64,000 nucleotides of DNA from Candidatus Thorarchaeota archaeon (lineage in GTDB: Archaea > Asgardarchaeota > Thorarchaeia > Thorarchaeales > Thorarchaeaceae), in NCBI GenBank assembly GCA_963726195.1, contig CAVSBO010000005.1, positions 96,001 through 160,000 of the forward strand. The letters run 5' to 3'. Numbering within the stretch: position 1 is the stretch's first letter; each line of letters starts with the position of its first letter. The translations under genes and the position numbers were made by a program. The notes below the pieces were generated by a model. It was given only the letters and a program-made list of their open reading frames with translations, was not told where the DNA came from and searched no databases. This document shows positions 19,328 to 23,089 of this stretch, piece by piece.

Positions 19328-20614
19328 CTATTTAGTATAGACGGCAATCTTGTTGCCCTTATCAAAGACGAGTATCTTCGTCCTTGAATCTTTGGCAATC
19401 CACTCATCGACAACAGCCTGTGGGTCGTCTACCTTCTCAAGATGTGCCGCTTCAACCGTCTGAGCGTCCAGATTGGTGTACATTTTCACGCAACTGATTC
19501 GTTTGAGCAGCTCTGCAAACTTGTACGCCTTGTGCTCGTATAGATGGTATTGACCGTGAATGGTACTGAGCACCTCGTCGAGCGGAGCGGTTAACTTGCG
19601 GTAGAAGTTCTCAATGGCCTCTTCTGGCGCAACGCCATCCTTGCATTCGGCTATCAACAGAATCTCACCGCCATCGGCAACTGCATTCTTGGTCAGCTCA
19701 ACTGCCCTTTGGGCATGATAGAGACTCTTGTCTTCAGGATAGCCGCCGGGAGAAACTATGATTCTCGGCACCGGCCTGACACAGAAACTGTCCGTTTTGT
19801 CGACCGACTCGATGCCGCCCTCTATCACGGGCTTGAGGAGTCCGGCATCAGCCCAGACTAACTTATTGTCATCGGAAACGACTGCCAGTGCGAACGCCTT
19901 TGCCCCCTTGGTGATGATTTCCATCGCTTCTCTCATGTCATCAGCAAGCGGGTTGTCTCGTCTATTGGGGTCCGGATGATATGGGTGTCGTCCGAATGTA
20001 GACCTAGGATCCAAAGCCATGGCATGATTCGCTTCGATTGTCGCAAAGGCGCAGACTCCCGGGAGGAAATCCTTCAGAGCATTTGAATACCCACCGAAGT
20101 AGTGAGCTTTCATATCGGAAAGTGCGACATAGACATCATGACCAGCTGCTGCCGAAGAGATGATGACGGGCGTGCCTCTGCTTGTTGTGCCCAAGTTGAC
20201 TACATCGGTATCATGACAGTCATTAATCTTAACTCTGAAATTAATCAGGCCCGCATCCTTTGAGGCCCGGTTGATCATATCAACAATCTCTCGGTTCCCT
20301 GGATGCTCGACCTCGTGAGAGCCGGTTGTTATAATGAATTGAACATGGCTGGCGTCTCTTAGTGATGGCATGACGGCATTGATGAGTTCCCAGCGAGGCT
20401 CTTCCCTCGTATGATCCTCGACGAGGACACAAACACTCTTGCTCTTTGTCAAACTTGCCAATGAAGGGCCATGGGGGTTTTCCATTACATGTCTTAGTTC
20501 GTCTAGAGTATTTCCCCTGACCTGCGGATTCTTCGGCGCAAGCACGCCTGCTAGATTTCGCTTTGGTATCTCAATCTGCACTTCTCCGCTGCCGTTTCTC
20601 AAGCTTACTTTCAA
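19328..20614 (-). CDS. larA: Lactate racemase (LarA) family nickel-pincer epimerase
   Basis: EDHTR, TGSH, HYFGGYSNALKDFLPG, EANH, SPGGYP; TTG start inferred at 20614. Confidence 0.82.
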   Translation of the reverse strand: MKVSLRNGSGEVQIEIPKRNLAGVLAPKNPQVRGNTLDELRHVMENPHGPSLASLTKSKSVCVLVEDHTREEPRWELINAVMPSLRDASHVQFIITTGSHEVEHPGNREIVDMINRASKDAGLINFRVKINDCHDTDVVNLGTTSRGTPVIISSAAAGHDVYVALSDMKAHYFGGYSNALKDFLPGVCAFATIEANHAMALDPRSTFGRHPYHPDPNRRDNPLADDMREAMEIITKGAKAFALAVVSDDNKLVWADAGLLKPVIEGGIESVDKTDSFCVRPVPRIIVSPGGYPEDKSLYHAQRAVELTKNAVADGGEILLIAECKDGVAPEEAIENFYRKLTAPLDEVLSTIHGQYHLYEHKAYKFAELLKRISCVKMYTNLDAQTVEAAHLEKVDDPQAVVDEWIAKDSRTKILVFDKGNKIAVYTK

Positions 20615-20728
20615 GTCTGATGCCCAATCTAGGTTGCACTGAGTTGCTGAAAAGGCTTCACTAGTATGCACTCTGTTCAATATTGCATACCGAAACTGAT
20701 ATTCACAAATGTCGCCGAGAATGGGTCT

Positions 20729-21070
20729 ATGGAGAACTCGGCGAACCGGGAACAGAGCGGGTTCGGCGGTGCTGGCAAGTACTTGGCTGTGGCCTCTGAG
20801 CTGCCCTGCACAATCGTGGCAATGCTTTTCGCCGGGCAAATAGTGGGAGCCTCCATATGGGGCGTACAAGGTGGCGTCTGGGGCGCTATCATAGGAACGG
20901 TTGCGGGATTCATCCTAGGTGCCTATGGGGTGTACGTCACGGTGGGCTACTTTGATAGATTGGAACGAGGCACTCACCTGAAGGGCAAGTATATGCCGAC
21001 TCCTGATGAGATAGCTGAGGATGTCGTCTTCCGTCTAGATGAACAAGAGCCCGATGGTTCTACTTCGTGA
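20729..21070 (+). CDS. Small two-TM protein, AtpZ/AtpI-like
   Basis: YLAVASELPCTIVAMLFAG...GAIIGTVAGFILGAYGVY resembles the ATP synthase gene-1 pattern. Confidence 0.5.
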   Translation: MENSANREQSGFGGAGKYLAVASELPCTIVAMLFAGQIVGASIWGVQGGVWGAIIGTVAGFILGAYGVYVTVGYFDRLERGTHLKGKYMPTPDEIAEDVVFRLDEQEPDGSTS

Positions 21071-21680
21071 ACTCCGAATCGTCTGAGTCGAGGACTCCGG
21101 TTATGATCTTCGACGCGTTTCTTCCAACGCCTGCGATTATGATCTGGATCAGGAGAGCTATGAAGAATGCACCTAGGGCCCATGTGAAGAGGCGCAGCGA
21201 AATGGAGTTGTAGGGAGCTACGAAGGGGTAAAGGATATCCTTGTCCAAGAGGTACCAGATATAGAACCCGGTCACTCCCATCAAGACAGTCAGAATCGCA
21301 TACATATACACGACAGTCTTCACTCGCGGAGTGTCCAAGCGAACCGTCTGAAGAGTGGGTCCTGTTACTGCATCACCTATGCGTCGCGATCCTCGAATGA
21401 AGATGCTTATTGCCGCGAGGAATATGCTTAGAGTCAAAATGCTGCCTATCAACAAAAGTAGTATCTGTACGTCAGTGCTTAGTCCCGGGATGATTCGCGC
21501 GACGTAGAACGCCGCGAGTGACCCTAACATCACAATGACCGACAGGATCTCAACAACGAAGCTGATAATCGCCGAGCTTCTGAACAAGCTGCCGATATCG
21601 AAAACCTCTGAATGCTCGCGTGCAGCTGACTTGCCTTCACCTGTCGTCTTGTTCACTCTCGCGATTGGAGTAACTGCCAC
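21060..21680 (-). CDS. Four-TM hypothetical membrane protein
   Basis: Four hydrophobic helices, GTG start. Confidence 0.75.
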   Translation of the reverse strand: MAVTPIARVNKTTGEGKSAAREHSEVFDIGSLFRSSAIISFVVEILSVIVMLGSLAAFYVARIIPGLSTDVQILLLLIGSILTLSIFLAAISIFIRGSRRIGDAVTGPTLQTVRLDTPRVKTVVYMYAILTVLMGVTGFYIWYLLDKDILYPFVAPYNSISLRLFTWALGAFFIALLIQIIIAGVGRNASKIITGVLDSDDSEFTK

Positions 21681-21815
21681 TTATGTCAACTACCCGCGAC
21701 TAAAGTCGTAGGCTTGCCACTGCGATCCGCGGTAGGAACTCCACCTCGTCATTTCGCGCGACATTCGGGCGGTTGACTTGCGCCCTCCCGACCACAGCAT
21801 TGCCACGGTCGGACG
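21665..21815 (-). ncRNA. Putative TnpB-type reRNA/omegaRNA scaffold plus flank-derived guide
   Basis: TTTAAA at 21840-21845; hairpin 21788-21812; GGGCGCAAGTCAACCGCCC stem; right-end hairpin. Boundaries are inferred. Confidence 0.5.
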
Positions 21816-21911
21816 TGATTCTTCAGTCTCAAGCTCACATTTAAACTCGTATGTCACGGGCGGCGATTCCTCCCCCAACTGAAGTTGGGGGTCTCCTCGC
21901 CGCGTTTCTCT
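21685..21911 (-). mobile_element. Non-autonomous IS200/IS605-family derivative (227 bp, no tnpA or tnpB)
   Basis: Left-end hairpin CCCCCAACT-GA-AGTTGGGGG (21872-21891) inside a GCGGCGA/TCGCCGC stem; right end CAAGCCTACGACTTTAGTCGCGGGTAGTTGAC on the minus strand; TTCAT 5' of the left end; no target duplication. Confidence 0.8.
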
Positions 21912-22024
21912 ATGAACTCTTCTTTTGGCTGCTCACGGGTTCTTTGTCAGAGGATGAGTTTATATGTTGCGTCCAGGCTGCAGGCCTCGTTTCCCCCATG
22001 ACCAGAGAAGGCGGTCTATGGAAC

Positions 22025-23089
22025 ATGGCCACCAAGGCTGCAAGTGAATATGCATTCGTCAACGCCCGGATTCGCGGCATCAAGTCGTACTTTCTGCCTG
22101 TCGGTGAATACGAGCGTCTGTTGCAGTCAGGTAGCTACGAGGATTTCATCAAGCTTCTTGCAAACACGCACTATGGACCAGTTATGCAGAGAGAGTCTCC
22201 TCAAGGCATGCCCATGCCAGACGAACTGGCGATTATTCTCTCGAAGGATTTCGTTGAGGTCAGCTATAGCATCTCGCGGTCTCTCACGGGAAGAGTCAGC
22301 TGATTTTACGCGGGCATACACAGGCATGTTCTTGGCTGAGAGCCTAAAGTCTCTCATTCGCGGAGTACATGTCGGTCTGGAACGAGACGAGATACTCAGG
22401 TTCTGTGTACCTACCTCCCCGGCACAGGCGGAGGTGTTTTCTCAGCTGGCAGATGCCGGGTCGATTCAGAAGCTGATTGACGTTGTACCTTACCGAGACG
22501 TGAAAGTGGCATTGCTCACAAGGCTTCCTGCGTACGAAGAACTTGACTCAACTGCACCACTCGAAGTAGCTCTTGAGGAATGGTTCCTTAGATCTGTTCT
22601 CGAAGCTCTGAGAGCTTCCCAATTGAAGACCGACGACGTGTGATGAATCTTCTTGAGACTCGGGTTGATCTTCGAAATGTCATGACCATGCTGCGCGCAC
22701 TTGTGCTAGGGCTGGACGCGCGCGCAGTTGAGATGTCATTGGTCCGGTTTACGTTTAAGTCGAAAGCGTTGGTGGAATCAATGAGGGGTCAGACTTCTTG
22801 GCGAGATGTGTTTACGCGGCTAGAGAAGACGAAGTATGCGCAACTCGCAGGCAGGCTTGCCCGGCTGTACGAGGACAGTCAAGATCTGGCGAATGTGGAA
22901 TTGGCGATTGAAGATTACATCGCGCAGCAGGTGAAGCTTCTTATGAGCGCTTTCCCGTTCCACCCTGGTACGATTCTAGGCTTCTTCAATTTGAAGTTCT
23001 ATGAGATTCGAAACATCCGGTCAATTGCTGTGGGAATCGAACGAGGCGAACCAACTGATACAATAAGACGCATGATTACAATTTGGTGA
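22025..23089 (+). CDS. atpC: A/V-type ATP synthase subunit C (V0 d-like), two apparent frameshifts (~22297 and ~22590-22640)
   Basis: YAFVNARIRG, THYG, C-terminal LKFYEIRNIRSIAVG spread over three consecutive ORFs. Confidence 0.87.

Follow-up and report, generated by a model that had tools for sequence, protein, structure and literature searches.

A divergent intergenic region of the window (the whole 64,000-nt stretch of DNA that was analysed) contains a mini-element that encodes no protein and is almost certainly a PATE (palindrome-associated transposable element) with a complete guide-RNA scaffold. Its right end lies 5-29 nt from the start of a co-oriented ORF of 206 aa, and a gene for a subunit C-like protein of A/V-ATPases (vATP-synt_AC39) starts on the other side (Table 1). 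The latter gene (22025-23089) is spread over three reading frames, matching profile positions 1-74, 75-189 and 196-338, which implies two frameshifts, and its orthologue in a genome of the same genus (G002) occupies a single frame; the split gene is either a pseudogene or a product of assembly indels.

Table 1. Features of the locus and of three related tnpB-bearing elements. Coordinates are window positions except in the last row, which gives loci in the genome to which the window belongs (G000).
Feature	Position	Strand	Basis or remark
LarA-like gene (lactate racemase N- and C-terminal domains)	19328-20869	-	Two genes away; unrelated to the element
Downstream co-oriented ORF, 206 aa, membrane-like, no Pfam family	21060-21680	-	GTG at 21680; conserved GTG at 21656
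Flank, would-be guide of 16-20 nt, ATAAGTGGCAGTTACTCCAA	21665-21684	-	By analogy with TnpB systems
Mini-element (PATE), 227 nt, AGAGAAACG...GGTAGTTGAC	21685-21911	-	Ends common to seven copies, flanks unrelated; segment absent from the orthologous site in G002
Omega-RNA (reRNA) scaffold, 129 nt	21685-21813	-	Alignment A2, RNAalifold, covariance model positions 1-129
Pseudoknot 3' half GUUGAC, also the right-end terminus (transposon-encoded motif)	21685-21690	-	
Scaffold terminal hairpin, UUUA loop	21713-21692	-	
Scaffold composite helix	21762-21716	-	
Scaffold helix 2	21785-21767	-	
Pseudoknot 5' half GUCAAC, in the loop of helix 2	21772-21777	-	Complementary to terminal GUUGAC
Scaffold helix 1	21813-21787	-	
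Linker from TATA box to scaffold, with deletion junction and predicted transcription start	21814-21839	-	Weak alignment to parents
TATA-like TTTAAA, from the tnpB promoter of the parent	21840-21845	-	Invariant in 7/7; homologous to the box of parents and relatives
Left-end subterminal imperfect palindrome	21860-21903	-	Outer GCGGCGA/TCGCCGC, inner CCCCCAACT-TC-AGTTGGGGG; read directly and folded
TTCAT target/transposon-adjacent motif (TAM), directly 5' of the element	21912-21916	-	Copy alignment; kept at the G002 empty site
vATP-synt_AC39 (A/V-ATPase subunit C-like) gene	start ~22025	+	Pfam
Parents P_C16b, P_C5 and P_C8	G000:C16:4490-4618, C5:38278-38406, C8:50827-50955		TGG for TAG

The minus-strand features listed in the initial annotation (TTCAT, a left-end hairpin, TTTAAA and the stems CCGACC/GGTCGG, GGGCG..CGCCC and CGAC-TTTA-GTCG) are all present where it had placed them. 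It had also described the segment as free of any transposase or nuclease ORF, and this is correct: 227 nt is too short to encode either protein, the element's single open frame (62 aa, 21690-21878) is a chance frame that differs from the TnpB frame, and the only other coding trace is a TnpB tail that lacks a start. A small peptide made from this retained tail was considered as a product of the element and was ruled out by an in-frame TGA just upstream together with the missing start codon. On the minus strand the element terminates in GTAGTTGAC at 21685, with a boundary ambiguity of 1 nt, as an A is present on either side. It has no terminal inverted repeats and no target-site duplication, and it occurs in multiple copies with identical ends. 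The left-end palindrome is presumed to be the binding hairpin of a Y1 transposase; its core, GACTTCAGTC in other copies, is similar to the core of the right-end hairpin, GACTTTAGTC, and both hairpins share GACTTYAGTC.

The mini-element family comprises seven copies of 227-229 bp with 89-92 % identity, identified by a search of the genome to which the window belongs (2.92 Mb in 19 contigs, 88.9 % complete). BLAST and a covariance model converged on 11 genome loci, seven of them mini-elements and four bearing tnpB, with identical boundaries and unrelated flanks (example loci are C8:127012-127240 and C16:97480-98753). When the seven mini copies were aligned with their flanks, similarity broke off sharply at both ends. 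TTCAT lies directly 5' of six copies and CTCAT of the seventh, and the copies terminate in GGTAGTTGAC (GTTGAC), with GTTGGC once.

An orthologous site without the element was found in G002, where both flanks align (79-83 % identity) and precisely the element is missing. The empty site reads GAGTTCAT|ATAACTGGC, also written GAGTTCAT|ATAACTGG and in longer context ...AAGAAGAGTTCAT|ATAACTGGCGGC..., without target duplication. Further genome copies with the same ends, an empty allele and insertion 3' of TTCAT without duplication had each been predicted, or put forward as a check, in the initial annotation, and all were recovered: the copies in the genome, the allele at the orthologous place in this same-genus genome, and the mode of insertion from the agreement of the G002 site with the copy alignment. 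The copies and the empty site establish that the mini-element was mobile in the past. Excision is precise in the IS200/IS605 family, so the state in G002 may be either never-inserted or excised. None of the three other genomes of the genus yielded a member of the mini-element family. No match to Y1 TnpA (PF01797) was detected in the genome itself (88.9 % complete) or in the three congeners, with positive controls that worked, and PF01797 matched in four of 86 genomes of the family. Present-day excision is doubtful because no Y1 transposase was found in the genome or its congeners; excision, and hence any homing that depends on it, may at present be absent. The genome nevertheless holds ~30 tnpB loci, yet neither it nor the genus has a Y1 TnpA match.

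At four sites in the genome, two pieces of the mini-element, its initial 57 nt and its final 130-139 nt, lie separated by ~1.2 kb. These are the ends of four intact 1.28-kb elements with the same termini, 79-95 % identical to those of the mini-element, each containing one uninterrupted ORF for a TnpB of 384 aa (for example G000:C16:97498-98649); the motif directly 5' is TTCAT in two of them and TTCAC and TTGAT in the other two. The encoded proteins have the Pfam domains Cas12f1-like_TNB (E 8e-23) and OrfB_IS605 and match solved Cas12f and TnpB chains over the RuvC and zinc-finger region. Two CxxC pairs are present in all four, and the RuvC motifs GVDRG, LEDL and HADLNA in three of the four, the exact GVDRG string not being found in the fourth. 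Pairwise dN/dS was 0.09-0.16, which shows the parental TnpB to be under purifying selection. The genome contains ~25 further tnpB loci that are far more divergent. No close relatives of this TnpB were found at E<=1e-40 in 86 other genomes of the order; among named genome records there was one fragment, in a Promethearchaeota MAG, and a metagenome scan for TnpB relatives yielded eight loci, which served as a source of covariation. A haloarchaeal origin, initially entertained on account of the TATA box and the IS1341 style, was abandoned after the searches of named records and of the order.

Alignment with the closest parent shows how the mini-element is built. Positions 1-77, with the TAM, left end and TATA box, correspond to parent positions 1-77, positions 96-234 correspond to the last 139 nt of the parent, and a linker of ~18 nt joins the two parts. 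This supports a non-autonomous derivative of the IS200/IS605 family (IS1341-type) formed by internal deletion, and it bears out two expectations of the initial annotation, that parents bearing tnpB and the same ends exist (four in the same genome) and that a deletion removed the proteins and kept both ends, the promoter box and a scaffold of ~130 nt. There was one deletion event, because all seven mini copies have the same junction. The PATE goes back to one internal deletion in a tnpB-only transposon of 1.28 kb, after which it spread to at least seven sites, the parts kept being the left end with its presumed transposase-binding hairpin, the tnpB TATA box, the 129-nt omega-RNA scaffold, and the right-end hairpin and terminus.

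In the parents, the scaffold covers the last 37 codons of tnpB and stops at the element terminus. In the last hairpin, the UUUA loop contains the TAG stop codon of TnpB. Three parents have TGG in its place (Table 1), which keeps the ORF open; for two of these at least, it would continue beyond the right end into the flank, giving a locus-dependent C-terminus.

The structure of the scaffold was derived from alignment A2, which consists of 18 distinct sequences (seven mini copies, four parents, six metagenome loci and the one Promethearchaeota MAG fragment) over 129 columns without gaps. RNAalifold gave four helical regions, and a pseudoknot between columns 37-42 (GUCAAC) and 124-129 (GUUGAC) was added. 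The resulting structure has 47 pairs with 97.6 % of cells paired. Pairs changed on both sides numbered 10, compared with 4.5+-1.1 in 500 shuffles (0/500 reached 10) and 1-4 for slid partners; within the pseudoknot there is a single compensatory change, carried by the contig C5 parent (A40G with U126C), besides one wobble change. The fold is confined to the tnpB sense strand because several G-U pairs are invariant. The 252-nt segment of the initial annotation, folded as RNA, gave -101 kcal/mol (z = -4.4 against dinucleotide shuffles). Synonymous rates among the parents were 0.14-0.22 in the 37 codons that overlap the scaffold versus 0.39-0.87 in the remainder of the gene, and this low rate in the tnpB tail is the mark of a functional RNA that overlaps the gene. 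The covariance model built from A2 recovered exactly 11 genome loci, all full length, the training sequences among them matching by construction. Rfam 15 returned no family match at the gathering score over the whole window, and at E up to 10 over 21500-22100 only two chance-level matches, one of which was HEARO on the wrong strand. As in a TnpB reRNA, the region in the parents lies across the 3' end of tnpB and stops where the transposon stops; it combines a multi-stem fold with a pseudoknot, and a cognate TnpB is available (four copies without stops, three of them with all three RuvC motifs). One metagenome relative (L046:879-1017) has a tandem duplication of 10 nt in the arm and loop of the terminal hairpin (GACTTTAGTC twice), which lengthens its scaffold to 139 nt.

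An ATTTAAG or TTTAAA box is conserved after the left-end hairpin in the parents and metagenome relatives, ~31 nt 5' of the tnpB ATG; the TTTAAA of the mini-element occupies the same position and is therefore the tnpB promoter box. It begins 32-33 nt, and lies 26-27 nt, 5' of scaffold base 1, with TCCGACC marking the scaffold start at 21813, 26 nt after the box. In the tRNA genes of the genome (ARAGORN), an A/T-rich box such as TTTTTAAT, CTTAAATA, GTTATATC or CTTAATAT begins 32-36 nt 5' of the mature end in 11 of 20 genes by our reading. Because the TTTAAA spacing equals that of the tRNA genes, transcription is predicted to start no more than a few bases from helix 1. An internal promoter in the parents was rejected, the codons there (CTTAAT, TTGAAT, CTGAAT and CTCAAC) forming no conserved TATA box; the parental guide RNA would more likely be processed from the tnpB mRNA. 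The fusion of promoter and scaffold was a single event, since one deletion junction is common to all mini copies, and it could have been fortuitous.

The best explanation of the locus as a whole, and probably the right one, is a PATE deleted once whose guide RNA is used in trans by the parental TnpB. Transcription would begin ~24-27 nt past TTTAAA, at most a few bases away from helix 1, and the transcript would cross the right end into the flank, yielding scaffold and locus-specific guide without mRNA processing. The four intact parents would supply the TnpB that binds this RNA in trans. Following excision of the element, or entry of an element-free allele, TnpB would cut at TTCAT plus the guide sequence, and repair would restore the element, a cycle of homing or retention. 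We infer transcription, TnpB loading and cleavage; transcription and use in trans are plausible on the grounds of conservation, covariation and promoter spacing, and, judged from the sequences, we lean towards a guide RNA that is expressed and used by TnpB.

By analogy with TnpB systems, the flank would act as the guide. The predicted target of this copy is TTCAT followed by ATAAGTGGCAGTTACTCC (ATAAGTGGCAG...), and TTCAT plus the flank is the empty site seen in G002. The 16 nt past each of the 11 right ends match their own locus only (<=1 mismatch), where they are preceded by TTGAC and not by the TAM, and no second target with a TTCAT TAM was found for any of the 11 guides in the genome at <=1 mismatch. 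Each guide's only predicted target is therefore its own empty site. The initial annotation had envisaged several copies as a dispersed guide repertoire; this was not upheld, there being no targets beyond each copy's own empty site (11 guides, <=1 mismatch). Homing or retention fits better than a wider targeting repertoire and agrees with the model of Meers et al. A nuclease-dead regulator of the TldR type was also considered and rejected, given RuvC motifs in three of the four TnpBs, intact transposon ends, multiple copies and guides that match their own flanks only.

Among the seven mini copies, the scaffold and the TATA box are constrained. Diversity was lowest in the scaffold, at 0.056 against 0.115 for the left end and 0.173 for the linker (Fisher p about 1e-4), which makes the scaffold 2-3 times less variable than the other parts of the mini-element; its first 100 nt have a diversity of 0.049, and the TTTAAA hexamer is invariant. 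Two of the copies were extracted with an offset of one base, so the values at the ends are slightly noisy. The 27 scaffold differences from the mini consensus comprise 15 at unpaired positions, nine that keep a pair, two that repair a mismatch and one that breaks a pair, versus 10.5+-2.5 breaks at random placement. In a stricter test, with each variant counted once and the structure built without the mini copies, there were two breaks versus 6.0+-2.0 (P=0.036). In the old TnpB frame, 11 of 17 variants in the mini copies are synonymous, versus about 38 % expected among changes that the RNA tolerates (p about 0.02-0.03), and of 19 variant states, 13 are shared with copies that bear tnpB, with shared variants at scaffold columns 51, 57, 72, 84 and 105. 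Either long dual-coding evolution has brought the positions left free by the RNA into register with third codon positions, or the parents exchange sequence with the mini copies; gene conversion with the parents could lie behind part of the scaffold conservation instead of selection on each mini copy. The bias of the variants towards synonymous changes and their sharing with the parents weaken the case for per-copy selection but do not remove it.

This last pattern, which suggests homogenisation by recombination and not selection on each copy, also speaks for a different, though unlikely, reading, in which the mini-elements are inert remnants of transposition, with scaffold and TATA box kept by a chance deletion and by the needs of the right end, and without a functional guide RNA. 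One common junction, hence one event, is consistent with such a remnant, as is the lack of a detectable transposase in the genome and the genus. In well-studied elements of the IS200/IS605 family such as IS608, however, the subterminal hairpin together with some 50 nt at the right end is all that the transposase needs. Here the best conserved part of the scaffold is the distal 100 nt, substitutions avoid breaking pairs, and TTTAAA is invariant in seven of seven copies while the adjoining linker is the most variable part.

It is distinctly improbable that the main effect of the element is on transcription of the downstream gene, as a mobile promoter or leader, although such an effect would be compatible with a guide RNA. 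At this locus, a TATA-like CATATAA spans the junction of the empty site TTCAT|ATAA, ~24 nt 5' of the conserved GTG (window 21656-21690; L027:1420-1560). The insertion may have split this likely native promoter of the 206-aa gene and put the element's own TTTAAA promoter upstream in its place, with the right end close to the start of the ORF. Co-oriented ORFs lie <=150 bp downstream of seven of the 11 elements, a count taken from raw ORFs without statistics on orientation or distance, and a bias of orientation and site towards promoter regions is possible. A TAM-driven preference for AT-rich promoter DNA would produce the same pattern, a tightly folded leader of 129 nt has no obvious advantage, and the conservation of pseudoknot and helices would be left unexplained. 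Ancestral, non-mobile regulatory DNA or RNA such as a riboswitch-like leader, which the intergenic position and strong secondary structure might suggest, is already refuted by 11 dispersed copies with unrelated flanks and the precise absence at the orthologous site of a congener, and the ends shared with tnpB elements and the absence of an Rfam match also argue against it.

Guide-RNA-bearing PATEs have been published, so the kind of element described here is already known. PATEs were defined in Haloquadratum walsbyi as fused ends of IS605-type transposons (PMC3119063), a PATE of Halanaerobium hydrogeniformans keeps the last 58 nt of tnpB and the whole right end (PMC7290912), and PATEs are reported often to carry omega-RNAs that TnpB necessarily uses in trans (Meers et al., bioRxiv 10.1101/2023.03.14.532601; Geobacillus stearothermophilus). 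Like these, the present element is protein-less, lacks terminal inverted repeats and target duplication, has subterminal palindromes at both ends, and consists of the fused ends of a tnpB element whose core was deleted; as in Halanaerobium, the 3' end of tnpB and the right end are kept. In contrast to published PATEs, the host is probably an Asgard archaeon, and a search of its genome turned up no cognate Y1 transposase. A further possible difference is the archaeal TATA box in the left-end fragment, which is positioned such that the predicted start falls on scaffold base 1.

In the guide RNA of ISDra2 from Deinococcus radiodurans, the scaffold measures 116 nt and forms four stems; its UUUA tetraloop occupies -20 to -17, and in a pseudoknot adjoining the guide -5..-3 pair with an upstream segment (PMC10097598). 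Compared by the description in that paper, the UUUA loop of the present scaffold is also at -20 to -17, and its pseudoknot uses -6..-1 instead of -5..-3. Both scaffolds overlap the 3' end of tnpB and end at the right end of the transposon, and both elements have a five-base TAM of the TTNAT type (TTGAT in ISDra2, TTCAT here). Unlike ISDra2, the scaffold has 129 nt instead of 116 nt, shows no detectable sequence similarity, and lies entirely inside the parental ORF, with the stop TAG in the loop of the last hairpin. In Halobacterium salinarum, sense-overlapping transcripts (sotRNAs) occur at the 3' end of IS1341-type tnpB genes (PMC4615843); they resemble the present predicted RNA in being archaeal, non-coding and derived from the sense strand of the tnpB 3' end, and differ from it in being described within tnpB genes, whereas the RNA region here stands alone behind a left-end promoter.

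A system role beyond transposon homing in an Asgard archaeon, for example allele drive or exclusion against element-free DNA that arrives during genetic exchange, or co-option as structured leaders or promoters of the downstream genes, is quite improbable; it is raised because four TnpB genes and 11 scaffolds, seven of the latter protein-less and with a promoter box of their own, are under purifying constraint, mostly 5' of co-oriented genes, without a detectable Y1 transposase. The current picture is unchanged, because trans-used guide RNAs on PATEs have already been published by Meers et al. The family illustrates cleanly how a TnpB guide-RNA gene can become separated from its nuclease in nature, with seven protein-less and four nuclease-bearing copies, and it also tests, naturally and on a small scale, RNA-only constraint where the parental sequence is dual-coding. 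For an uncharacterised TnpB family it predicts a TTCAT TAM, a guide that begins after GTTGAC, and a 129-nt scaffold with a defined 5' end, a pseudoknot and a UUUA loop.
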